Below are positions 1,462-50,400 of a DNA stretch of 64,000 bases, one piece after another. Both the position numbers and the translations under genes were made by a program. The stretch is from Naegleria gruberi (lineage: Eukaryota). The number at the start of each line of letters is the position of its first letter. Position 1 is the first letter of the stretch. The stretch lies in the NCBI GenBank assembly GCA_000004985.1, contig GG738900.1, one strand, 5' to 3'. Below the pieces are notes generated by a model. That model was given only the letters and a program-made list of their open reading frames with translations, searched no databases and was not told the origin of the DNA.

Positions 1462-2065
1462 TTTTTAAAAATTTTATTCTTTTTTAATAAATATTAATTT
1501 ATTATTCAAGTGGTGATGATCTACAATCGCAAGTATGGTAATTAAAATTGTTTTTATTGAGAAGTAAATCATTATATAACAGCAGTATATCTGGATGATA
1601 TGATGCTTTAACACTTATACAACTTCACAAGGCTTGTTTTATTAAGCCATTATTAAAAAAGTTGTAAATATGTTATCATTGTTTTTCCAAAGAGTTCGCA
1701 AGGGATGAAGGTGTCCAAAAATTATTCATGGGTATTTTCCTATGTCTATTGAATAATTCAATGTTAATGTAATAATCCGATAGAAATAGTTCAATGATGA
1801 TTTCGAGAAATAATTGACGAATTCCGATAATTTATATCGATAACGTAGTGGAACATTAATGCATTAAAGCATGACAAAGATTAATTGATGAATATTTATT
1901 GTTTTTGGCTTTTTTTCATGTTATTCACCAGCTAAAATTTCTTATTGTAAAATCCAGGATAGACTAGTCATCCCAAAAATTTTAAAAATTTTGTTGAAAA
2001 AAAAGTCGAAAAAAGTAAGTTCTCTCACGCCTATCACAGGTCGCTAAACAACATCAACTAAAGAC

Positions 2066-2768: not shown

Positions 2769-5342
2769 ATGGCAAATCAAGTATATGAGGATAACGAAGA
2801 ACATGAGGATAATACATCATACGATGATGAATATTCACCGATCGAGGATATTTCGGAGGGTGCTCTAGACTATAAAGATCCAATGAGAAGAGTTAAAATT
2901 TATCATTTGAGTGATCTTGGAGAGTGGATTGACAAGGGAACAGGACATATTCACTGTGAAACTCAGGTATGTTTGAAAAACATGAATTTCCAACAACAAC
3001 AAAACAAAAAGGATAACGAAACTAACCTTGTATTAGTCTCAGAGTCTTCCGATGAACGTTTATTATCAACACCAATCTCAACAGATGATATATATGCTTT
3101 ACAAAATGGTTAGTATTACCTTGTTTTTTTACAATAATTTTTGTTAATAATTTCTGTAGCAACTTTAATCGTTTGGAATGACCCAGTTCAAAAAATTGAA
3201 ATGGCTCTTAGTTTCCAACATTCTGATGGATGCATTATGATATGGTAAGTCTTTTAACATCTTGTTATTGTTAAACAATTATTTAAAGGAATGAAATCAG
3301 GAAAGTTCAAGGAAAACCTCCTGATGGAAAGGAGGTTGTTGCAAGAAACAATCAAGAAGAGGAAAGTGTAGATGATGAAATTGTTGGTATGGGACTAAAT
3401 GGAAGTTCTCTAAGTATTGGATCAACAGGTAGTAGTTTAGGAAAAATTGAGTTACCTGAACCTAGTATTAGTAATCTAACAGCTATACTATCTATAATTA
3501 CCGATCATAGATTCAGATTACCAAGTTATATCAAGTCTGATTACATTTTAAAATTGTTCCAGGTTTTTGATGATTGTGAGGATTTGGATAGTGTTGAAAA
3601 TTGTCGGATTTTATTCAAAATATTCTCTGGAATTATAGCAATTGATGATCTTGAAATATTGGAGATACTATTTTCTAAAAACAACATCATGAAGTTAATT
3701 GGTGTTTTGGAATATGATCCAGATTTACCAACAAAAAAAGCCAATCATAGAAACTTTTTAAATAATCGTGTAATTTTCAAAGAAGTTATTCCATTCAATA
3801 ATCATAATGTTTTGGATAAGATTCATCAAACATTTAAAATACAGTATATAAAGGAGACGATTTTGGCATCAATTATTGATGACCAAACATTTAGCACATT
3901 AAGCACAATAATATTCAAGAACAACACAATGATAATCAATTCCATCAAGGAAGATCAGGAATTCTTGAAGAAGGTATTTTCAACCCTATTAGCAGATGAT
4001 ACTCCAAAAGATAAACAAAGGGACCTTTCCAAGTTTCTTTCTGAATTCTTTGCATTGCTAAAACATCAAAATATTAACAATAAGATAGATACCTACAAGT
4101 AAGTTGACAGTTTTTAACTTGTTTTATTTAATAATATTTCAGGAGATTAACTCTAGATCATCAATTATTGGATGTTGCAGAGAAACATTTACAAAATGAA
4201 AATGTTTCAATCAGACATATTTAGTAAGTACTTTATAATATTTAATTCTAATGCATTATTATTCTAGTTCCGAAATACTTTTATCTATAGCACAGACGAT
4301 TCATCTCTCTTTCCTAGGAGAAATCAAACAAAGACATTTAAGAAATGATTTCAACTTGCTAAAGGTAATAATCAAAACTATTGTCAGCGAACCAGAGCTG
4401 GGCATTCAAGACAATTTGACAGAAGTCATAAAGTTATTATTGGATCCAGAGACCCTCCTTACCAACTCTGACGTATTCATTGACCAATTTTATAAGCATC
4501 ATGTTGAATTGCTTGCATCTCCAATTTTAAATCCACAGACTACAATTAATCATTTCACAAAACCTTCCATCAAAGTCAGTTGCATTAATCATGCATTGGA
4601 CTTACTTTCCTTTACAGTAATTCATCACAAACACAGAAGTAAGAACTTTTTAATAGCGAATGACATTATATCTAAGGCCGTTCATTTATTGGATGTTTAT
4701 AGGGAGAAGGATTTGATACTTGGCGTAATTAGATTCTTCAAGTCTATTATTTCGAGGGGTGACTTGCTACTTTGTACAAATATTTTGACCAACAACCTTT
4801 TTGATCCAATCATGGAAGTTTGGAGAAGAAATGGCTCAGTTTACAATCTCATTAATTCTGCAATTATAGATTTATTTGAAGCATTAAGAAATACCACAAC
4901 TGGTAGACTTAAGCAACATTGTGTCGAACGATTCAGACAAGATTTTGAAGCTGTTAATTATGTTGAAACATTTGCTCAACTTATTGAGGAATGTGATCAA
5001 CAAGAAAATTCTGAAAACAATAATAATGTATCTCAACAAGAAAGTGATGATGCCTACTTTAATGACAATGAAGAAATGCACAAGTCTATGATTGCACAAG
5101 ATTCACCAGAGCGAGCTTCTGTTGAAGAAGAGGATGATTTTTTCTTTACTCTTTCGAAACATAAGGGTAGCAATCAAGATGATGACGATGATGAATCTGA
5201 TATTTACTCTAATAGAGAGAAGAATGATATGGAGACCTCATCACCTCATTCTCCACACAAATTGCAAATTAGTTTGAAAACCAATACCACTTCACCAACC
5301 AAAGGAGAGGTGGAACCAAACCCTAAGAAGGTTAAATTTTAG
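2769..5342 (+). CDS. PPP4R3: serine/threonine-protein phosphatase 4 regulatory subunit 3 (SMEK/PP4R3), 5 exons
   Basis: Exons are 2769-3108, 3160-3244, 3289-4098, 4143-4223 and 4268-5342. Introns are 44-51 nt (GTTAGT/GTAAGT..AG). The N-terminus RRVKIYHLSDLGEWIDKGTGHIHCE is the RanBD/EVH1-like start of PP4R3. The conserved TLIVWNDP...MALSFQHSDGCIMIW block is restored only after splicing. An armadillo-like body and an acidic tail follow. Confidence 0.85.
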
Positions 5343-10741: not shown

Positions 10742-13700
10742 ATGCTGAAAAACAGCATAACAGTAGATTTGAGCGGTAAGGACGGAGAAGATGGTCATCA
10801 AGGCAAGAGGTAAGAGTACATACCTCAATTTTTTTGATGTTAATATGTTGCCGAATTAGTGGACGTAATGGTGAAGTGGGAAAGGTAATGTTTCTAATCT
10901 CCCTTAATCATCATAAAATCACTGTTGTAAAATAGTCAGGGAAAAGTGGACAAATATCTGCCTTAAATAATGGAAATGGAAGTCATGGAGAACCAGGAGG
11001 ACCGTAAGTATATATTGCTGGAGTGAAATTAGCCATGTGTTAATAGAGGTGGAGATGGAGAGAATGGTGGAAAGTAAGTTCTAGCTGTTATTGAGTACTT
11101 GACCTTATTTAATATTCCTTCTCAACAACAGTGGAAAAAAGGGGCAACACGCAACAGCTGGTGGAAATATTTAAGTAAAAATTGAGGGATCCAATCACAA
11201 GTTAATCACTTTGAGTGGAAGTATCAATGATTCTGTGTGTTTGAATGATGGTGCTGGACAAGTTTTGGTGTTTCTGGCGAATGGTGGAAATGGTGGAAAG
11301 TGAGTATCAGTGTAGCTTTGATTTGAAGTGCTTACAATTATAGAGGTGGACGTGGAGGACCAGGTGGTAAGTTGCTGAATAGCAAACACGACTGAGAATG
11401 TAATTCATTCAGGAATGGGGGGAGTCGGCGGAAAAGGAGGAACTGGAGCAAGAGGTGGTAATGGTAGCTCTGGAGGTAATGGTATGAATGGTCAAGATGG
11501 TGGCAATGGAGGAAAGTAAGTATTGAATGATTGAGACAATTTTGAAACTAATAATTATTTCAGTGGTGGCGTGTAAGGAGAAATACAAGTTTAGTTAGTT
11601 GATTGAAATTTAGTGCTGGAAAAGGAGGAAATGGTGGAGAGTAAGTTTTAATAATTGGTTGGAAATTCATATGTGCGTTTAACAAGTGGAGGGGAAGGAT
11701 CCAAGTAGGTTTTTCAATTATTACAACTATTTTAATGTGGAATAGTGGTGGAAATGGTGGAAATGGAGGAAGTATTCTTATTGAAACAAATAATGCTTCC
11801 TTGTTGAAGTTTGTCAAAGCAGAAAGTCAACCAGGTAAAGGAGGAATGGATGGAAAAGGTGGCTCTGCAGGAAGTGCAGGTAAAGGAGGAGAGAAAGGAC
11901 CTGGAGGACCTGGTGGTAGAGGTGGTGCAGGAGGAGCTGCAATGGGAAGAGGAATAATCAATACAAGATCTGGATCCAATGGAAGGAATGGATCAGATGG
12001 AAAATCTGGACAAAAAGGTCAAGAAGGAAGGAAGGGAAATCCAGGACACACTGGACAAGATGGTACACCAGGAAATTTAACCATTAGAGTCTATGATCCT
12101 CTTACTAATCAACTTGTGGAGGAAGGTCATTCAATTTATAATTTGGTGGTAACAACATTCGAATTGTGTGGCTATGAAAATGATGGAATTTTTGAACCAG
12201 ATGAAAATGTCTTTATTACCAACGTTGGTGTTAAGAATCAAGGAGGATTGACATTACCATCAGGTTCAGTTCTCTCATTTCCAAGCACTCAAACATTTAT
12301 TTCAAACGGTGAATGTTATGTTTTGGAGAAGAATTTGGCACCAGGCGAATTCTTTTCAATTCCTTTCCAATTTTATGGTCGAGTTGTTGGAAGGAAACAA
12401 AAACAATTTGGCCCTTTCAAGTCAACAATTAGCATTCAATCAAGTGCTTGTCTGTTAACTTCTCCATTTAGTGAAGGTTTTGTTAAGAAGGAATATCCAG
12501 TTCAGTATCCAATAGTATTGGAAAGTGTGAAAGTTCCTAAAAGTTTGGGAAGAAATGAAAAAGGAACAGTTACAATCACCGTAAAGAATCAATCTCTTAT
12601 CAATTATGGCTCTTCATTGGGTGATGGATACAGAATTAAGTTTTGTTTAACTCTGGATTCAACGTATATCATTCTAACAGAAACAAGCGCAACTAATATA
12701 TTTGAAGAGGAAATTCCCTTCATCCAAGCAGGAATGTCATACTCTAGAACGTTTAACATTGAAACAACTATCAATGCCCAATTCTATGAAACCATTCCAA
12801 TTCAAACAAATTTATTTTTGAGAGGACATCCTATTGAGGAATCATTGAACTCCATTCGTATTCAACCAACATACATTCCAACTAATCTCGATTCTCCAAA
12901 TCCTTTCGATGTGCTCTTCTTCTCAGATAAGCACATTAATAGGCAGGAATTTTCAAATTACATGTCCCTGCTTGGTAGAATAGGATTGAACGTGAATGTA
13001 TGGGATATTGAGAGATACGGTGGACTATCTTATAATAATAAGGGTAAGAGACATACAAAATCATGGATTGATGGTGGTTATGAAGGTAAAATGATAATAA
13101 TGCCTCTTATGGAACAAGGCTCTGAAAAACAAATGGCTGTCTCAGATATTTTCCAACATTTCAGGGGCAAAAATTGGCAAAATGATTCATCAAAACCAAA
13201 CAATGGATCTATCGTTTTTATCGGTAACCCTTCTGATTCATTCAAAAGTCAACTCTTTGGCGAATGCTCAGCCCAACAAATCCCAGAATCTGAACTAAGA
13301 GAAATGTTTCTGCTTTCTGAACCGAATGAAAGCTCAATGCTTAAGAAAGCAACAGAGTTTATTAAATCCCTCAATAAGACACATCCATCAAGGGTTTATA
13401 GAACTGAAAATGTGTTATTCAATCCTCAAAAAGATGGCTCATTATCAAAAACTTTATTAGGATCAGCTGATTATAAGGAATTACCCTTAAGCACTGCTGA
13501 TGCTTTATATTTCATTCCAACAAAGAGTGGAAACTCTTCTGGATTCATGAACGGAGGTATTACACTTCAAATTGAAAGCAAATCAAATATTGGAAAATTG
13601 CTTAACACTATTCTATATTCACTTCCTGTTGAGAAAAAATTGGAATTGTTAAGGAAACCAACCGAATGGCTTTCCAAAGTTCAAATTAAGGATGAAAATG

Positions 13701-13960
13701 GTGATTTACTTAATTATGTAACTTGTATTATCTTTGCTCTAAGCTTTAATCTGTTTTTGGAAATAATTTACAACGATGAAAATGGAAGATTTTCAACGGG
13801 TATTGAAGCAGATTTTGAAGCACATTTTGATGAATATAAGAATCATCCTCAATCCAAACAAATTGTTGAAACTCTATATTTGGTATTAAAGAAACTTGGC
13901 AGTGAATTAAAATGGAGAGGAACATCGGTACCTAGCATTAAGGAAAGGAAAAACCTATGA
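10742..13960 (+). CDS. glycine-rich / collagen-like repeat protein with a large unrecognised C-terminal region; 11 exons (contains an in-frame TAA)
   Basis: Exons are 10742-10809, 10860-10884, 10936-11003, 11047-11073, 11132-11299, 11344-11366, 11413-11515, 11564-11572, 11614-11640, 11687-11704 and 11746-13960. All ten introns are GT..AG and 41-58 nt. The chain encodes Gly-X-Y runs (GHQGKSGRNGEVGKSGKSGQ; GRNGSDGKSGQKGQEGRKGNPGHTGQDGTPG) and GGNGGxGG runs. TAA at 11172-11174 is in frame within exon 5. Confidence 0.6.
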
Positions 13961-18843: not shown

Positions 18844-21309
18844 ATGTCTCAACACCAAGTTGATTTTACCCTCGCGGATCTTCCCACTGAAATTCATCAT
18901 ACAATTTTTTACTACCTCGATTATGTTCGTGATATTTGTTGTGATCAGTTATTGTATGTTCCGATGATTGAAATGCCATCAACATTGGAAGAATATGAAC
19001 GGAATTGTATTGATCATGGTGAACAGGAATTTATTGATTTTGATCATCCTAGTCGCGTGCCTTTCTTTTTAGCCTGTCAATCACTGCTGAAATCTGTAAA
19101 ATCATTCAGACCAATAGTTTTGAATTTAACACTACCATCAACAGAAAGGGGGCTCTGCAGATATTATTTGGACAAGTTATATATTGAAACATTTCAAAGA
19201 ACTCCTTGGTTTAGAAGAGCAAAACCTGCATATCATTTTAGTAGTTATGATTGGAATGACGCATTTAGAGCACTATTTGAAAGGATGAAAAAGCTTTGTG
19301 GTGGTCATCCTTTGTTTAAAGTGGAATTTGTATCAGTTGCTTGTATTGTTGGCAGAAACTATACCTCTTTTGAATATGCTTATCATGGAGGATTTAATTT
19401 ACACAAACTTATGGATCTAGTACCTAACCTTAAATATGCACTATTCGATTTCAACCCTTCATTAGTTTTATATGAAAGAAGTGAATCTTTGACCATTATT
19501 TATGCATCAAAGTCAGATTATTACCATTCAGCATTGGGACAAAAAAAGAACATTTACTTCTCATCCTTTGATTATGAAAGAAACCCAATAGTACCAATTG
19601 AAAAATTGAAAGGAGTATTTCCAAACAATTATCCAACAAATATTGAAATATTCCTCTACAATAGTATAGTATCAAATAATTTTAAGGAGGCAAAATATAT
19701 TATCAACAATTTTACTCTTAATGCTAATATATTTTCCTATATATGGAATACCAAATCTTACATGACACGAGAACTCAACTATTATAATCTTACACAAATT
19801 ATGGACATATTACATTTTTTTTACAAAAATTATCCATCTTTTAGAGTATTTAGAATTCCAATAGACAATATAGTATGCTTAAAACTAATTGTATCACAGC
19901 CATTTGTAGATATTCATGTTGGTAAGAATATTACCAAATTATTCCTAGAGAGAATGACTACTAAAGATGTTCAGGTACTATCTAGAGATTATAATGTTGA
20001 TTTTTCCAAACTTGGTAATTTCAAATTCTCTGCTAATTGTTTTTTAGAAACAAATTTACAAATAGAAAATACTTGTGATATTTTTGGTGTATCCACGGCT
20101 ATGTTTAGATTGGAAAGAGGCAGTAACATTATTGAGAAGGATAAGTTTGGAAATAATATCCTTCATTATATATTCTTGAATAGGAGAGGAAACAATTTAT
20201 CGCAATCTCTTTCAAAGTTTTCACAAGAGGAAATTAAATTACTTGGAAAAGAGCCAAACATTTTCGGTATCACTGCAAATGAACTAGCGCTTATTAAGGG
20301 ATGTGACTTTAAAATTGAAAGTTTTAATAAGAAATTCTGCTACGAGTCCTTTGGTAGAACCTGTGGCAGTTCAGATTTGCCTAGAATGTTACTATTTGAT
20401 GGATTAATGGTTAATGAACAAATCTATTGTGTATTTATGAATAATTTACAAACCAGTAGATATGATTATGATCAATATAGAGATATCAACTTTAGAGATG
20501 AAAATGGAAAGCATTTGGTTCACTATTCCCCAAATTGTTTTAGTGAAAACACAGAGTGTTTGGGTTTAGAATTGAAAGATATTATCTTTTGCAAAGATAA
20601 TAATCAAACAATGCCCATCCAAACATTTTACAATAGTTATCTTGTGGCTTTGGACAAGTTAGGACAAATTGAGAATATGCCCAAGTTGAACTTTTTTTCA
20701 TATACTGATAACTTTGGAATGTGTCGATATTTATATTTATTGATGAATTCCTATATTAATACTCAGTTATTGGTATCAGAAGCTGATACTATTGGATTTG
20801 ATTACTCTTCAGGTCAACCTGAACTTGTATCATTGTGTTCTCATTATTTGGATGGACTCTATCATTTTTCAATTGAAAAAAGCCCTTTGAAACAATTGAA
20901 AGGTATTAGATACTTTGGAAGTGTTGATGGAGATGATTTCTCACATTACGTATTGAGATATTATTTGGATTACATTAACAAAAACCCTACTTACTATCTA
21001 GACACTTCAACCCTCAAGGTTCTTATTGCTAGAGGACTAAAGTTTGATGTTGTTAGAAACTCACAAGGGCAAACAGCTTTTGATTTAATTGATCACTTAA
21101 CAGGGACGACACAATTGAAACATATGAAGAAAGTATGTAGAAAAGGCCGTACCACAAAATCCAAGGCATTACCCAAATTTACAATCAAACACAATCCAAT
21201 TCCAAAAGATGTTTTAATAGAGGATTCTGAAACAACACTTGTTGTTAAATCACAAAATGTTGCACCATTCCGTATTAGAATCAAACGCAGTTTAACATTT
21301 CACAAATAG
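18844..21309 (+). CDS. F-box-like protein with possible ankyrin-like repeats
   Basis: 821-aa ORF. The N-terminal LADLPTEIHHTIFYYLDYVRDI fits the F-box L..LP.EI...IF..L pattern. Dispersed motifs (GNNILHYIF, NGKHLVHYS, QGQTAFDLIDHL) resemble ankyrin repeat cores. This is a weak assignment made by eye. Confidence 0.5.
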   Translation: MSQHQVDFTLADLPTEIHHTIFYYLDYVRDICCDQLLYVPMIEMPSTLEEYERNCIDHGEQEFIDFDHPSRVPFFLACQSLLKSVKSFRPIVLNLTLPSTERGLCRYYLDKLYIETFQRTPWFRRAKPAYHFSSYDWNDAFRALFERMKKLCGGHPLFKVEFVSVACIVGRNYTSFEYAYHGGFNLHKLMDLVPNLKYALFDFNPSLVLYERSESLTIIYASKSDYYHSALGQKKNIYFSSFDYERNPIVPIEKLKGVFPNNYPTNIEIFLYNSIVSNNFKEAKYIINNFTLNANIFSYIWNTKSYMTRELNYYNLTQIMDILHFFYKNYPSFRVFRIPIDNIVCLKLIVSQPFVDIHVGKNITKLFLERMTTKDVQVLSRDYNVDFSKLGNFKFSANCFLETNLQIENTCDIFGVSTAMFRLERGSNIIEKDKFGNNILHYIFLNRRGNNLSQSLSKFSQEEIKLLGKEPNIFGITANELALIKGCDFKIESFNKKFCYESFGRTCGSSDLPRMLLFDGLMVNEQIYCVFMNNLQTSRYDYDQYRDINFRDENGKHLVHYSPNCFSENTECLGLELKDIIFCKDNNQTMPIQTFYNSYLVALDKLGQIENMPKLNFFSYTDNFGMCRYLYLLMNSYINTQLLVSEADTIGFDYSSGQPELVSLCSHYLDGLYHFSIEKSPLKQLKGIRYFGSVDGDDFSHYVLRYYLDYINKNPTYYLDTSTLKVLIARGLKFDVVRNSQGQTAFDLIDHLTGTTQLKHMKKVCRKGRTTKSKALPKFTIKHNPIPKDVLIEDSETTLVVKSQNVAPFRIRIKRSLTFHK

Positions 21310-21476
21310 CCTAGAAAATAATAAAATAAAGAAGTTCAGCAGAAACATCATATTGATAGATATCCAACAGGTGGTCTTACATCAGTATTAGCTGTTGATG
21401 AAAACAAAATGGGTTGGATTAACATTTAATTTGGCAGTTGACATTATTTCAATTAAGTTTTCTATTGGTTGAAAAT

Positions 21477-21693
21477 GACGGGAAGCCTGCCAGGAATATG
21501 ACGACAATCCCGCTACAGTCTTTGACTGTATGAACAGTGAAGGCAACGAAGACAGAATCTTGTTGGTTCAGGTTTTGTTTGAAGAAATTGTTAAAGTTGA
21601 TCAACCTCATATTTATTGAACATTTGTCATGTTGAAATGCATGATGCAAATTTTGGTTTCTCATATTCTGATCAATTCTAAATTGAAACTTCA
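21477..21693. repeat. dispersed ~220-bp repeat, copy 1 (70-nt near-invariant core 21477-21546)
   Basis: It aligns with 44032-44260. The first 70 nt (gacgggaagcctgccaggaatatgacgacaatcccgctacagtctttgactgtatgaacagtgaaggcaa) differ at 1 position, and the rest is much more diverged with indels. The core contains the perfect hairpin ACAGTC-TTT-GACTGT and a CGGGA...TCCCG pairing. Confidence 0.85.
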
Positions 21694-21716
21694 TTATTTA
21701 CAATTTACTGAATTAT

Positions 21717-22004
21717 TTACAAGTTTTTAGATTTGGTAATTTTCTTAGTTGTGGTAGTAGATTGTTTAGCTCTCTTTTCAATTGAATTTTTAGAAGATCT
21801 TTTCACTGAAATTTGTTTACCATTTAAATTTGCATGATGATAATCAATATTATTACGATGTCTAGTTCCACTTATAATATTTGAAGTATCAATATCAAAT
21901 AATGGTAATCTTTTAGATAAATCAATTGGTTTAGATCTTGTCCATTCTGTTTTTGTTGGAATTCTATCTTCGGAAGAATGTGATGAAGTATTTCTAGCTG
22001 GCAT
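21717..22004 (-). CDS. small basic protein with CHZ-type motif (Chz1/HIRIP3-like histone H2A.Z-H2B binding motif)
   Basis: 95-aa ORF. FDIDTSNIISGTRHRNNIDYHHANL matches the yeast Chz1 core EIDTSNIITSGRRTRGKVIDYKKTA (recalled from memory). Confidence 0.55.
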   Translation of the reverse strand: MPARNTSSHSSEDRIPTKTEWTRSKPIDLSKRLPLFDIDTSNIISGTRHRNNIDYHHANLNGKQISVKRSSKNSIEKRAKQSTTTTKKITKSKNL

Positions 22005-22227
22005 TTTGCTCTTAGTTCTTGTTATTAGGTTGTTTTGTTTTGTTGTGGAAATTTCATCATCCTATACCAGTTATCTATTTATTTCCATATTGATTTCCAC
22101 TAATTTTGTGATTCCGATTTTTAGTGGATTTTCCACTCATCACAAGAATTTGAATTTTTCTATTAATATTAAGGAAATTTAATGAAAATCAACAAACAAA
22201 AGAAAATAACAAAATAACAATAAGAAA

Positions 22228-22443
22228 ATGGTCTCAACAAGAAGAAATATGTATAATTCCTCCAATAATACTTCACAATTTAATTCCGAAATTTCTCTGG
22301 ATAATATTATTGGTGGAACAAGAAGAAGAAATTTAATTGATTACAAAACATTGAATTCTATTGGAAGTGAAACAAGCAAAACTTCCAAATCTCAATCACA
22401 TAACACTTTAGAAATGAGAAACAAACAATTCAAAATGTGGTAA
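22228..22443 (+). CDS. small protein, paralogue of 21717-22004 with the same CHZ-type motif
   Basis: 71-aa ORF containing SLDNIIGGTRRRNLIDYKTLNS. It is divergently oriented, 223 bp from its paralogue. Confidence 0.5.
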   Translation: MVSTRRNMYNSSNNTSQFNSEISLDNIIGGTRRRNLIDYKTLNSIGSETSKTSKSQSHNTLEMRNKQFKMW

Positions 22444-23243
22444 TCTCCATTTAACTCAAAATTTTGTAAACCTAGGCATTCATTGTAAATAAACCCAAAA
22501 TATTGATATAAAGGAATACTCTCCTAATCAAATAAATTGTCTTATTCAACAATATCGTTCCGTTTCAATAGCATAATAACAAAGAGTTGCATTCCTCCTC
22601 TTAATTTCCTTATCGTTAACTTTTCCATTATGAATCGTTTTTCCAAAGTAACTAGTTCTGCCAGTTTTAAAATGTAAGCAGTGTATTCAATTTTTAAATT
22701 GCAATAATGTACATGTTGTTTATCCTCATTGAAACATAATGAAATGAATTCCTTTTTGAAAAGAAGATTTTGGGATTCCTATTTACTTTGATATCACAAC
22801 ATCCATACATGCATGTTGAATGAGAGGGTGTTTACATGTCCGTGTAGTTTTTTTCATCATTGGCGGTTCCAAAAGTTACAACGAGTTCCCATCTAATTAT
22901 TTTAAGCAACACGATCAAGAGGGTTAAATGAGAATATTGTAAACTAATATCTCCCTTTTCCCTATGTGTTGTTATGAGTTCTATTCGATAGTTAGATGAT
23001 ACTGAGGTGTTACCATTCCTCTTACTGACTTCTCAATAAGGTTGTTCCACAAATGTTCAACCAATTCAATTCTCAGAAAACCATTGAACTCTATTAAACT
23101 CCATTGTAAATATTGTAATCTTACTCAGTCAAAATTACTATAAATTCAAATTGACAATTCTTTTTGATAAAAACAAAACAAACAAACAATAATATTCAAT
23201 ATTGAATTGTATCTGAAAACTCCTCAACAAACTTAAACTCAAA

Positions 23244-23780
23244 ATGACTCAACAAACTCACGAAGAATTATTCAATGAAAACATGTGTGGAAGTGGTTTG
23301 GCATTCAAGAAGGTAGTTTGTGAATTATTCAACAATCGTATTGTCCCTGCGACCAAGAATCTTCAACAAGTCAACCCAAAGATGATCATCTTGTTGGATT
23401 GGGCTTCTCTTGCTGCATTGCCAAGTGAAACCAAATACAAGTATGGTGATAGATTTGTTGAAGATACCCTGTTGAATAATTGCATCAAATTCTTAATTGA
23501 AAGTCCAAGATTGAGCAATATGAGTGAAATTGCCAAGGTTTTCATCAAGGATCCTGATTGTAAGGAAGTTTTTATGGGATTGGAAAAGTTGATTTTCAGA
23601 GTTGTACACAATGCTGATAGTAAGGAATCTTCAGGTTTCCTTGGATATTCTTACAAGGTTAATGGTACTGATTTGGTTGTCACTTTGGATTGCAATTTGA
23701 CTCTTGTTATGAAGGTTGCCAATGAAAGACAAAGCCCAACTGCTGATTCAGAAGCTAAAAAGTTGATTAATGCTTTCTAA
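23244..23780 (+). CDS. hypothetical protein (178 aa)
   Basis: Clean ATG-to-TAA ORF with host-like codon usage. No family recognised. Confidence 0.55.
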   Translation: MTQQTHEELFNENMCGSGLAFKKVVCELFNNRIVPATKNLQQVNPKMIILLDWASLAALPSETKYKYGDRFVEDTLLNNCIKFLIESPRLSNMSEIAKVFIKDPDCKEVFMGLEKLIFRVVHNADSKESSGFLGYSYKVNGTDLVVTLDCNLTLVMKVANERQSPTADSEAKKLINAF

Positions 23781-23856
23781 TTTTTTAAATGGCAGTACTC
23801 TATGAATCAACATTGATTTACCTAATAAAAAACCTTTATTTTTGAATTGTCAAAAA

Positions 23857-23974
23857 GACTACAGCACCACAGGTTCCCAAGTTGTCTCCAACCTCAGTAC
23901 TGATGTGGCTCGACGATGCTTAACTTCTCAAATCGGACGGGATGAGGTGCATTCATCGTGATATGGCCGTAGCC
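23857..23974 (-). rRNA. 5S: 5S ribosomal RNA, copy 2
   Basis: The 118 nt differ from copy 1 at 2 positions (plus strand gcttaActtc vs gcttaCcttc; gatgagGtgc vs gatgagAtgc). A T5 terminator follows on the minus strand. Confidence 0.9.
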
Positions 23975-24102: not shown

Positions 24103-24795
24103 ATGAGTACAAACTTTTCTCAAGGTTTTCTGGTAAGAATGAAAGGAGAGCTAAAATTGCTCAAGAATCAACCTCCTCACGGAATTGCAGCCTATCCAAA
24201 GAATGAAGATCGTATCGATATTTTGGAAGCAAAAATACAAGGAACACAAGGTACACCCTATGAAGGTGGTGAATTTGTTTTGGAAATTACACTTCCGAAT
24301 AATTATCCTCATCATCCTCCAAATGTTAGATTTATTACAAAGATTTATCATCCTAATTTTGATAGTGGAGGCAGAATTTGTTTGGATCTATTGAACATGC
24401 CACCAAAAGGAGCATGGAAGCCTAGTATTAATATTTCAACATTGTTGGCTTCTATTAAATTATTAATGGATGAACCGAATGGAGATGATGGATTAATGGC
24501 AGACATTACAGAACAATTTAGAAATAATAGACAATTATTTGAGAAGATTGCAAAGGAATGGACGAAAAAGTATGCAATTACAAGTTTTGTGACAACAGAT
24601 TCATCGGAACAAACAAAGGAAGAAGAAAATAATGCAAAACCACCAGTTGAATCAAATGATAAATCATCGGAAAAGGAGAAGAAAGTAAGAAAGATTAATG
24701 ACAGTAGCAGTAGTGATGATGATGATAGCAGTAGTAGCAGTGAAGATGAGGAAGAAGGACTATTCCACAAGAAAATGAAAAAGAGAAAGCTTTAA
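24103..24795 (+). CDS. UBE2T: ubiquitin-conjugating enzyme E2 T-like
   Basis: UBC core HPPNVRFITKIYHPNFDSGGRICLDLL (catalytic Cys). MPPKGAWKPSINISTLLASIKLLMDEPNGDDGLMADI closely matches human UBE2T [37 protein letters not shown]. The C-terminal tail is Ser/Asp/Glu-rich. Confidence 0.85.
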   Translation: MSTNFSQGFLVRMKGELKLLKNQPPHGIAAYPKNEDRIDILEAKIQGTQGTPYEGGEFVLEITLPNNYPHHPPNVRFITKIYHPNFDSGGRICLDLLNMPPKGAWKPSINISTLLASIKLLMDEPNGDDGLMADITEQFRNNRQLFEKIAKEWTKKYAITSFVTTDSSEQTKEEENNAKPPVESNDKSSEKEKKVRKINDSSSSDDDDSSSSSEDEEEGLFHKKMKKRKL

Positions 24796-44031: not shown

Positions 44032-44260
44032 GACGGGAAGCCTGCCAGGAATATGGCGACAATCCCGCTACAGTCTTTGACTGTATGAACAGTGAAGGCA
44101 AGAGTTCTGGACGAATCTTGTTGTGTTTAAATAACAGGTTGTTGAGGAAATTCAATAGGTTGATCAACCTTGTATTTATTGAACATTGATTCGCTGAATT
44201 GCTTGATGCAAATTTTGGTTTCATATTTTCTGATCAAATCTAAACTAAATTGAAACTTCA
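44032..44260. repeat. dispersed ~220-bp repeat, copy 2 (core 44032-44101)
   Basis: See copy 1 (21477-21693). It has the same orientation. The minus-strand ORFs over the two copies fall in different frames across the conserved core. Confidence 0.85.
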
Positions 44261-48353: not shown

Positions 48354-50400
48354 ATGTTGCCATCATCGTGTTTTGGTTACAGTAATTGGAGTGGTAGAGC
48401 CACTGATGATGATGACTTTGAAAGCTTTCTCTATTCACCAACAAATGAGGAGCAAATTAATACTTCGGAAGAGATTAATTTAAATATGAATAATTCTATT
48501 AACACGACGGATCGGAACCAACATCAATCTATCTGTCAGAATAATACTGTGCCGGTACAATCAATTAATTCTTCATCAATGGTTGAAAAGAATGAATACA
48601 CATGTTTGTCATGTCGAAAATTACACAGAAAATGTGACAAATTACTTCCATCATGTTCTTATTGTTCAAAGAGAGGATATAATTGTATATATGAAAAACC
48701 AAAGAGAAGTGTAAAACCAAATCAACCAAACTTTGTGTTTGTTGATGAAGGAAGAAAGCTAACTAATCATCGAATAAGTCAACCAACAGCAGCAACAACG
48801 AACAAATCAATTTCGTTGTGGTGAAAATTCAAAGAATATAGAAAGGAGAGGGGAACCTTATGTAAATATTGTAAATAATTTGAATAGAATTGGAAATAAT
48901 GCAACGAGTATTAATGCATTGCAAAATGAGTTGAATTATCGATTTGTTACCACTCAAACTCTGGATGTATATTTTAATGTAATTGCTTGTGGAATGCCAC
49001 TTGTGGAAAGAAAGAAATTGGAACAAGTTTTGGAATATCAATCTAATTTGTATCATCCTTCATTCTCAATATCTGGATGTGATTTTTATACGAATCAGTT
49101 TGAATTTGAAAAGGATCAATCACTTTTATTTACATTACAAGCACTGTGTTTACAACAGATGGGTCATCGAGATGTTTCCACTCAACTCTACCTTCAAGGA
49201 AAACAATTATTGGGAAAATACTTTGATGACATTGATTCGATAAGCGTCCTACTTTCAATGAAATTTACATCACTCTATTTACTGGGAGAGGGTGAAAGAA
49301 GAAAGGCCAGAGCCATGATGTTAATTGTAAAAGCAGGTATTGATCCATACCTTTTGAAAAACGAAAAGGTGAAGGAAATTTCTGATCTAGAACTGATATT
49401 GAAGAATGCCAAATCTTTTACATCATTATTGATTGAATCTCAGCTAAAACTAATTGACCTTTACCTAAATGAAGAATGCTACCCAGACACATATCTTTTC
49501 GAGGCCATTGAGGAATTGTCAAACCGAAAACTAAAATTCACAGATGAGGAAAGATCAAGAGGATGTAAAAAACTAGACAAGGAAACCTATGAAAAGATAA
49601 AGGGATTTATGAAAGCTTACATGTCTCTCTCCAGAATATTTGTTGAGAGTGAAAGAAATGACACAGATAATGCAGGTAATTTGCTCATGCTTAGTTTGAG
49701 CATCACAACAAAGCAAATTTGGTTAGAAATTCTACTCAATTCAGATGAAAGTTTCAGAGATTTGAATGAAATTCTTCAAATTTCCAGTGAAATTATTAGA
49801 TTGACGAGGACTAAATTCTTTCCCTATCTTCAAATCAATGCTACTAAGGGAATAATTTTAGCTGCCACACTGAGGGCAAGTTATTATTACAAACTAGGTC
49901 CTAATGAAAATGTCAATGATGATTTGAGAGCTCTTAAATCACTCTCAACAAAGTACAAATATATCCAAACAGAATGTGTTGATTTGATGAAGGCACTTGA
50001 AACTCTGACATACATGTCATTAAATAGTGGAAGTTTATCAAATCCATTTTCTGTGGATGAAATTTGCAATTTTACCTCCAAAATTGAACCAACAACATTG
50101 AAAGCACCTACTGAAGGAGGAATTATTGTTTATTATAATGACTATGTAGAAAATCACAGACCTAATCTGAATCAAGTGATGAAGGAAGATACTGATCTTA
50201 TAGATGAATTAGTCAATTGTCTATTGGATCAAGATAAGATTAAGAAGGAAGTTACTGATCCTATTCAACAAAAAGAGAGCTTGCATTATAGAAAATTACA
50301 ACTTGTGCAAACCTACCGAAATAAGGCAACTGATAGGCAGGATAATTATCAAGTGATTGAAATGATGAAGAATATTCGACTCTTTTACATGTTGCAATAA
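48354..50400 (+). CDS. Zn(II)2Cys6 binuclear-cluster transcription factor, 2 exons
   Basis: CLSCRKLHRKCDKLLPSCSYCSKRGYNCIY is a perfect CX2CX6CX6CX2CX6C motif. The two ORFs are joined by an intron of about 70 nt ending at AATAG 48887. The donor is weak and ambiguous (GTGGTG at 48818 or GTTGTG at 48815, both phase 2). Confidence 0.7.

Follow-up and report, generated by a model that had tools for sequence, protein, structure and literature searches.

Two short open reading frames (ORFs) in a 64,000-nucleotide (nt) stretch of Naegleria gruberi DNA (contig GG738900.1 of assembly GCA_000004985.1; hereafter the window) are real, unannotated, single-exon genes and ancient paralogues kept head-to-head, and they encode small basic proteins that carry the CHZ motif of the yeast H2A.Z-H2B chaperone Chz1. 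According to the ORF list and the computed composition, ORF1 (21717-22004, minus strand) encodes 95 amino acids (aa) with an isoelectric point (pI) of 10.66 and ORF2 (22228-22443, plus strand) 71 aa with a pI of 10.36, and a spacer of 223 base pairs (bp; 22005-22227) separates them. The two proteins contain 20 and 11 lysines plus arginines and 8 and 5 acidic residues, i.e., net charges of +12 and +6; neither contains a run of acidic residues, and they align in BLASTP with 47% identity over 47 aa (expectation value, E, 9e-9). A preliminary description of the locus had given the ORF coordinates, strands, lengths and spacer exactly; its statements that the proteins are paralogous, basic and devoid of acidic tracts hold, and the two peptide strings it singled out, FDIDTSNIISGTRHRNNIDY in ORF1 and SLDNIIGGTRRRNLIDY in ORF2, are both present. 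Of the flanking ORFs, 18844-21309 is an exact match to N. gruberi EFC39317 and 23244-23780 to EFC39318; since these flanking proteins bear consecutive accessions, there is no gene model in 21310-23243, and neither ORF1 nor ORF2 is present as an exact sequence in a collection of 15 billion proteins.

The orthologues and paralogues of ORF1 (P0010-P0014, P0016 and P0046-P0049 in our numbering) are 57-96% identical to it and include at least four N. fowleri proteins and one N. lovaniensis protein, while ORF2 is represented by P0015, P0028, P0030 and uncalled ORFs in five related loci (L007-L011). The ratios of non-synonymous to synonymous substitution rates (dN/dS, Nei-Gojobori) are 0.09-0.32 for ORF1 and 0.08-0.60 for ORF2, in comparisons that span near-identical pairs to synonymous-saturated ones. 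All insertions and deletions in both genes are in frame, their start and stop positions are conserved, and the ORF2 copies of L003 and L004 differ by seven synonymous and no non-synonymous changes. The dN/dS ratios, the in-frame indels and the conserved termini therefore identify ORF1 and ORF2 as protein-coding and under purifying selection. Conservation in related genomes, on which the preliminary description had made its proposal depend, was thus found, with head-to-head orthologues of both genes in N. fowleri, N. lovaniensis and Naegleria-like lineages.

The CHZ motif and the module around it

The motif of both proteins matches CHZ. It lies at residues 36-55 of ORF1 (FDIDTSNIISGTRHRNNIDY; 21840-21899, minus strand), as placed by the Pfam CHZ and Chz1 alignments, and at residues 21-39 of ORF2 (EISLDNIIGGTRRRNLIDY; 22288-22344, plus strand), as placed by the Pfam alignment. 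The Pfam CHZ profile (PF09649; gathering score 23.3 bits), which the preliminary description expected to recognize both peptides, matched ORF1 above this cut-off with 28.6 bits (E 9.7e-7, residues 38-58) and ORF2 just under it with 21.5 bits (E 1.6e-4, residues 21-40); ORF2 is tied to ORF1 by the BLASTP match given above and by the family profile. All ORF2-type proteins keep the motif as SE(I/V)S..NI.GGTR.R...(N/D)Y. Among 22 family members, 10 independently match Pfam CHZ at E<0.01, and no other recurrent Pfam family was found in this set.

When the family profile was compared with PDB, the sole matches were three chains of yeast Chz1 (2jss_B, 6ae8_C and 8qz0_K), all aligned at the motif; single-sequence phmmer searches of PDB with the ORF1 and ORF2 peptides gave no matches. 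The yeast segment aligned to the ORF1 motif reads LAEIDTSNIItSGrRTRgkvIDYKK, of which seven consecutive residues, IDTSNII, are identical, and the yeast motif EIDTSNIITSGRRTRGKVIDY that the preliminary description had quoted agrees with the PDB chains. The alignment follows the core pattern (D/E)-I-D-x-x-N-I-I ... G-R-x-R ... (I/V)-(D/N)-Y. In ORF1 numbering, R50, Y55, S71, N73 and R78 are invariant across the 22 family members and R23, N42, G46 and R48 nearly so, and N42, G46, R48, R50 and Y55 line up with the N, G, R, R and Y of yeast Chz1.

This core, which the preliminary description had read correctly, is part of a larger module that it had not seen. The shared module comprises about 70 aa in three blocks, namely an N-terminal block (T)EWxRSxPxDxSKR, the CHZ core and a C-terminal block KRxSxNTxExR. 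ORF1 holds all three: its N-terminal block TEWTRSKPIDLSKRLP (residues 19-34; 21903-21950, minus strand) is kept in both the short, or mini, and the long forms of the family, and its C-terminal block KRSSKNSIEKR (residues 68-78; 21771-21803, minus strand) contains the invariant S71, N73 and R78. ORF2 consists of the CHZ core and the C-terminal block without the N-terminal one; its SHNTLEMRNK (residues 57-66; 22396-22425, plus strand), homologous to SKNSIEKRAK of ORF1, is nearly identical among ORF2-type proteins of four lineages, the consensus of the type being MVxTR...SE(I/V)S..NI.GGTR.R...SHNTLEMRNK. A C-terminal DEF/Y motif (consecutive D/E followed by F/Y) is absent from the ORF1 and ORF2 sequences. 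It is speculative that the conserved E20-W21 of ORF1, at the place where Percolomonas-like members show ED-H-W, could serve as a weak aromatic anchor.

We searched 1.84 billion representative sequences exhaustively with the family profile and obtained 26 proteins at E<=1e-3, mostly of 70-130 aa; an indexed search added further members. All named members are heterolobosean (N. gruberi, N. fowleri, N. lovaniensis, Willaertia magna, Acrasis kona and Percolomonas cosmopolitus); the P. cosmopolitus sequence P0052, from UniRef/EukProt, is presumably transcriptome-derived. The mini forms are rich in K, R, S and T and all have a pI of 9.8-12.0, so that basic charge is a family trait of the mini forms. 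The long forms (287-369 aa), which are mostly acidic, carry the same module at the N-terminus and a SUKH-like domain at the C-terminus; they include N. gruberi EFC39767 and EFC50596, W. magna KAL9642586 and A. kona KAL0483377, and an hhalign comparison of the mini module with them gave a probability of 99% and E 2e-18 over 67 columns. At their extreme N-terminus, P0033 of Acrasis and P0022, a metagenomic protein, present the full TEW...SKR - CHZ - SxNxLExR module; the long forms of Naegleria lack W21.

The AlphaFold2 model of ORF1, built from a 22-sequence alignment, has a predicted template modelling score of 0.25 and a mean predicted local distance difference test score of 69.7, with no tertiary or globular fold. 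Its only helices span residues 55-61 and 75-91, the C-terminal one being lysine-rich. According to this prediction, ORF1 is disordered in the free state.

The divergent pair and its spacer

The pairing of an ORF1-type with an ORF2-type gene is conserved. The head-to-head pair was measured at eight loci, with spacers of 179-272 bp: the window, four N. fowleri loci (L007, L008, L010 and L011), one of N. lovaniensis (L009), a metagenome contig of a second Naegleria-like species (L003) and a Logan contig (L006). ORF2 is intact in seven of the eight and ORF1 is likewise complete in seven, the L003 copy being cut by the contig end; in two further contigs (L002 and L005) the start of ORF2 is visible before the contig ends. 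In every NCBI annotation examined, the ORF1-type gene was called and its ORF2-type partner was not, except at the N. gruberi locus, where both are uncalled. Three copies are degenerate. In L001 (around 67-80), a 206-bp deletion has removed part of the spacer and codons 1-47, the 5' two-thirds, of ORF2; L004 (around 103-156) has lost the 5' end of ORF1 and the left part of the spacer; and in L010 (2112-2228) ORF2 has a premature stop after codon 38, with the part encoding the CHZ motif remaining. We considered a mobile element and rejected it, as the unit is flanked by neither terminal nor inverted repeats, has no second copy in the window and stands among different neighbours at different loci. 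In N. lovaniensis and two N. fowleri loci the pair lies about 500 bp from an actin gene (L009 430-1557, L010 399-1526 and L011 423-1550), followed in L009 and L011 by the ARPC4 gene; this synteny is absent at the N. gruberi window locus.

The spacer (22005-22227), a putative bidirectional promoter, contains conserved alignment blocks, which in the six close copies are CTATTTATT, TTTCCAC(T), TGAT.TC and TTTT.GGTGGATTTTC. On the ORF1 side, the TATA-like box CTATTTATT (22075-22083, minus strand) lies about 72 nt from the ORF1 ATG and is invariant in six of six gruberi-clade copies. At the equivalent place, N. fowleri has TTATTTATT in L007 and L008 and TTTTTAT in L010 and L011, and N. lovaniensis (L009) has CATTTATT; L006 possesses a single copy of a TATA-like TATTTAT(T) box, which is shifted to the far left part of its spacer. 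Towards ORF2, the A/T-rich box CTATTAATATT (22160-22170, plus strand), about 60 nt from the ORF2 ATG, is present in five of six gruberi-clade copies, its place being taken by TTACTATT at the deletion edge in L001; a comparable box in N. fowleri and N. lovaniensis reads AAAAATAAATTC or AAAAATAAATG. The central and most deeply conserved element is a T-run followed by GTGGAT (22118-22129, plus strand), which recurs as TTTTT.GTGGA(A/T) in the window, L003, L006, L007, L008, L010 and L011 and as GCTGGAAT in N. lovaniensis.

This central element was noticed in the preliminary description as the inverted copy among repeats of the TCCACT type, and the inverted GTGGA(A/T) is the form conserved at depth, while the TTTCCACT copies are confined to close relatives. 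The coordinates it gave for TTAGTGGAT (22121-22129) and TTTCCACTCA (22130-22139) are correct; TTTCCACTAA lies at 22094-22103, one base off the 22095-22104 it stated, and there is a fourth copy, GTGGAAA, at 22045-22051. The first TTTCCAC (22094-22100, plus strand) occurs in the gruberi-like and L002-L004 copies, reads TTTCCAT in L005, and is absent from the L006, N. fowleri and N. lovaniensis spacers; the third (22130-22136, plus strand) is found only in the N. gruberi-like copies, i.e., the window, L001 and L005. As a deeply conserved promoter motif, TTTCCACT was therefore rejected, since its absence from L006, N. fowleri and N. lovaniensis makes it clade-specific. Both strands of the window contain TTTCCAC 25 times, with 13.5 expected, and three copies of the motif fall within 92 nt of the 223-nt spacer; with a Poisson expectation of about 0.09, the spacer repeats are thus more than chance. 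Elsewhere in the window, seven TTTCCAC copies (GTGGAAA on the plus strand) cluster at 11067-11763 (minus strand), from just upstream of ORF 11735-13960 into its start; this ORF encodes a DUF7932/collagen-like protein; the GC skew of this region is unusually high (0.35), and the cluster may be a repeat.

The layout of the spacer fits a bidirectional core promoter. The putative elements of such a promoter would be, in order, the TATA-like box, the central T-run with GTGGA(A/T) and the A/T box, and ORF1 and ORF2 are probably co-transcribed from it.

Elements past the stop codons and neighbouring genes

Two TTGTAAATAA elements with a PUF-type UGUAAAUA core lie at and just past the ORF1 stop (21694-21722, minus strand), and another TTGTAAATAA element lies 40 nt past the ORF2 stop (22483-22492, plus strand). 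The UGUAAAUA core matches the Pumilio/PUF consensus, UGUANAUA. A PUF-like TGTAAATA follows the stops of both genes at 15-42 nt in the gruberi-clade loci and recurs past the ORF2 stop of L006: it was found after ORF1 at 21-42 nt in L001, L002 and L005, and after ORF2 at +35, +38 and +42 in L003, L004 and L006. At the N. fowleri pair loci, the TGTAAATA or TTGTAAATAA element is absent. The shared TTGTAAATAA elements suggest shared post-transcriptional control of the two genes. A generic polyadenylation or 3'-end signal was considered and rejected, because TTGTAAATAA follows only 3 of 32 ORFs, and the element is regarded as a PUF-like and specific 3' element. Among the other ORFs of at least 150 aa in the window, the only one with TTGTAAATAA is 48354-48824, which encodes a cysteine-rich protein of 156 aa and is followed by two copies at about 48861-48879 (plus strand).

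An element of about 70 nt, GACGGGAAGCCTGCCAGGAATATGRCGACAATCCCGCTACAGTCTTTGACTGTATGAACAGTGAAGGCAA, was found on the plus strand of the window at 21477-21546 and 44032-44101, in L008 at 1648-1729 (plus strand) and in L007 at 3086-3149 (minus strand). It adjoins the CHZ pair in the window, L007 and L008 and does not do so in L009-L011. Its N. gruberi and N. fowleri copies are 83-88% identical, which exceeds the identity of neighbouring coding sequences, and its hairpin ACAGTC-TTT-GACTGT shows two fully compensated pair changes in L007, with a third pair covarying. A search against Rfam gave no family even at E<=10, and no tRNA was found in it. The element is probably an unclassified dispersed small RNA gene.

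Downstream of the pair, EFC39318 (23244-23780, plus strand) encodes 178 aa without a Pfam domain. It belongs to a recently expanded multi-copy family, since its 90%-identity cluster comprises six N. gruberi proteins on six scaffolds. A full-length 5S rRNA gene (23856-23974, minus strand; Rfam RF00001, 105 bits) is situated between this ORF and the gene for an E2 ubiquitin-conjugating enzyme (24103-24795), an exact match to EFC39319.

Possible roles and related systems

A histone-binding and nuclear role of the ORF1 and ORF2 proteins is one that we infer from the motif and its surroundings. Each gene would give rise to a protein that is small, disordered and strongly basic and is centred on a Chz1-type CHZ motif; the motif would dock on the surface of H2A(.Z)-H2B that is used by Chz1 and HIRIP3, formed by the H2B alphaC and H2A alpha2 helices, while the invariant RxR arginines would contact acidic histone residues. 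The CHZ motif sits on H2B alphaC, reaches H2A alpha2, touches Glu66 of H2A.Z and is indispensable for the binding of HIRIP3 to H2A-H2B, and HIRIP3 on chromatin is proposed to bind in an acidic-patch or arginine-anchor mode (PMC10854748). Chz1 contacts acidic histone residues with three arginines that lie towards the C-terminal end of its core, within the basic end of CHZ or next to it, and its acidic N-terminal region covers a basic histone surface (PMC3395605); the preference of the fungal proteins for H2A.Z depends on flanking elements and the DEF/Y motif (PMC6544321). Since the mini forms have no acidic tracts that would cover the DNA-binding face, we are inclined, with moderate confidence, to regard them as microproteins that bind chromatin, nucleosomes or histone dimers through the motif and not as chaperones of the classical kind. 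It is possible that they modulate the longer CHZ-SUKH proteins of the same genome, most of which are acidic, or compete with them.

Several observations weigh against this interpretation. In rice, the isolated CHZ domain of OsChz1 fails to pull down H2A-H2B or H2A.Z-H2B, and binding required the adjacent acidic stretch (PMC7658359), and HIRIP3 reaches its full affinity only with residues 403-527 (PMC10854748), so that binding by a CHZ motif on its own may be weak. The scores of ORF2 and most relatives lie slightly under the Pfam CHZ cut-off, and the match to Chz1 covers only about 20 residues, with PDB profile E-values of 0.07-0.28, which are weak because the match is short. The promoter elements are 6-9-mers in AT-rich DNA. 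One partner has been lost in L001, L004 and L010, so strict co-dependence of ORF1 and ORF2 is not required. No paper on any family member was found in the open-access literature.

The mini forms could alternatively be microprotein antagonists, that is, a truncated long-form module that competes for the histone surface and tunes the long chaperone in a dominant-negative manner. The homology of the mini module with the N-terminal module of the long forms points in this direction, as do P0033 and P0022, which open with the full module, and the absence from the mini forms of everything beyond it. However, the mini forms are multi-copy and under strong purifying selection of their own, including in blocks unlike those of the Naegleria long forms, which do not have W21, and on the sequence evidence we consider this account unlikely as a full explanation. 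Because it presupposes histone binding, it refines the microprotein interpretation and does not exclude it.

A different partner is rather improbable. If the CHZ-like stretch were a short linear motif that serves such a partner and its likeness to CHZ convergent, the proteins could be small basic nucleic-acid-binding or nucleolar/ribosome-associated proteins, as their extreme basicity, their K/R/S/T-rich composition, the predicted lysine-rich C-terminal helix and a short match that mostly lies near or below the Pfam threshold might suggest. However, convergence would have to account for seven consecutive residues shared with yeast Chz1, for the spaced N, G, RxR and Y positions that are kept, for CHZ as the sole recurrent Pfam family across the members, and for long relatives in which acidic tracts accompany the motif, as is usual in canonical CHZ proteins.

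It is very doubtful that the mini forms are classical Chz1-like chaperones, which would escort free H2A.Z-H2B and deliver it to SWR1 as yeast Chz1 does. They have the CHZ motif in common with Chz1 and resemble it in disorder, but their net charges of +12 and +6 and the lack of an acidic helix or tract and of a DEF/Y motif speak against this role, for which the mostly acidic long forms of the same genome are better suited; in rice it is the acidic region that performs the binding (PMC7658359). Finally, we see next to no chance that the ORFs are non-functional, whether as products of chance or as passengers of a mobile or repeated element. Their multiple copies in each genome, the degenerate copies L001, L004 and L010 and the missing annotation of both in N. 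gruberi might hint at this, but dN/dS is far below 1 in every comparison, including synonymous-saturated species pairs, reading frames and termini are conserved, the unit has neither terminal nor inverted repeats at its flanks, and the flanking genes differ between loci.

The preferred interpretation as histone-dimer- or chromatin-binding microproteins bears on whether the motif can work without acidic flanks. The CHZ-motif proteins studied so far, Chz1, HIRIP3 and OsChz1, are all long or acidic chaperones, and they point in different directions, the motif being indispensable in HIRIP3 and insufficient in OsChz1. The Naegleria mini forms are natural minimal constructs, basic, disordered as predicted and 70-100 aa long, with the motif and two short blocks, and therefore offer a direct test of CHZ alone; purifying selection has maintained them throughout a lineage that branches deeply among eukaryotes. 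The annotations of N. gruberi, N. lovaniensis and N. fowleri, a human pathogen, all lack the ORF2-type gene, and that of N. gruberi lacks ORF1 at the present locus as well; our results thus correct annotations and add a putatively chromatin-related gene family to these genomes. The preliminary description had considered minimal CHZ proteins undescribed, and in the open-access literature we found no paper that describes small stand-alone CHZ proteins or these loci and locus tags. The ORF1 type is nevertheless already in the databases, since its N. gruberi paralogues P0011 and P0013 were deposited as 'predicted protein' with an automatic, precomputed Pfam CHZ match. Apparently undescribed are the genes of the ORF2 type, the conservation of the divergent pairing, and the three-block module with its link to the CHZ-SUKH long forms.

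Among the known systems, Saccharomyces cerevisiae Chz1 (YER030W; PDB 2JSS, 6AE8 and 8QZ0) shares with the mini forms the CHZ motif (ORF1 DIDTSNIISGTRHRNNIDY and Chz1 EIDTSNIITSGRRTRGKVIDY), small size (153 aa, compared with 95 and 71 aa) and intrinsic disorder (PMC6544321), which is predicted on the Naegleria side. In contrast, Chz1 has an acidic N-terminal helix and a C-terminal DEF/Y motif that give it affinity and H2A.Z preference (PMC6544321, PMC3395605), whereas the strongly basic mini forms of Naegleria lack both elements and carry the blocks TEWxRSxPxDxSKR and SxNTxExR instead. HIRIP3 of mammals and OsChz1/AtChz1 of plants resemble them in the CHZ motif, which is needed for H2A-H2B binding (PMC10854748), and in having neither H2A.Z-specific elements nor DEF/Y (PMC6544321); they differ in their length of 470-560 aa, with the motif near the C-terminus and extended or acidic flanks needed for binding (PMC10854748, PMC7658359), whereas the mini forms are basic and have 70-100 aa. 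The heterolobosean long CHZ-SUKH proteins have the same three-block module and occur in the same lineage and the same genome.

Arginine-anchor nucleosome binders include the HMGN nucleosome-binding domain, LANA and the CENP-C motif. As a mechanistic analogy, the mini forms would resemble them in being small, basic and disordered and in docking on H2A-H2B by a short arginine motif. No sequence relationship with these binders is claimed, and the footprint known for CHZ is that on H2B alphaC and H2A alpha2 of free dimers (PMC10854748).

The other analogy is one of gene organisation, in that two small, basic and putatively chromatin-related paralogues stand head-to-head about 200-270 bp apart and the pair has been duplicated as a unit to several loci. 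The histone genes H2A-H2B and H3-H4 likewise occur as divergently transcribed pairs, although the products of ORF1 and ORF2 are not histones. We tentatively propose that the CHZ microprotein pair may form a histone-gene-like system specific to Heterolobosea, conserved, duplicated many times over and bidirectionally transcribed, whose products might dock directly on nucleosomal H2A-H2B by way of the motif as abundant architectural or regulatory proteins or as competitors of the long forms. If this is true, CHZ set in a basic context would by itself suffice as a unit for binding nucleosomes or histones.

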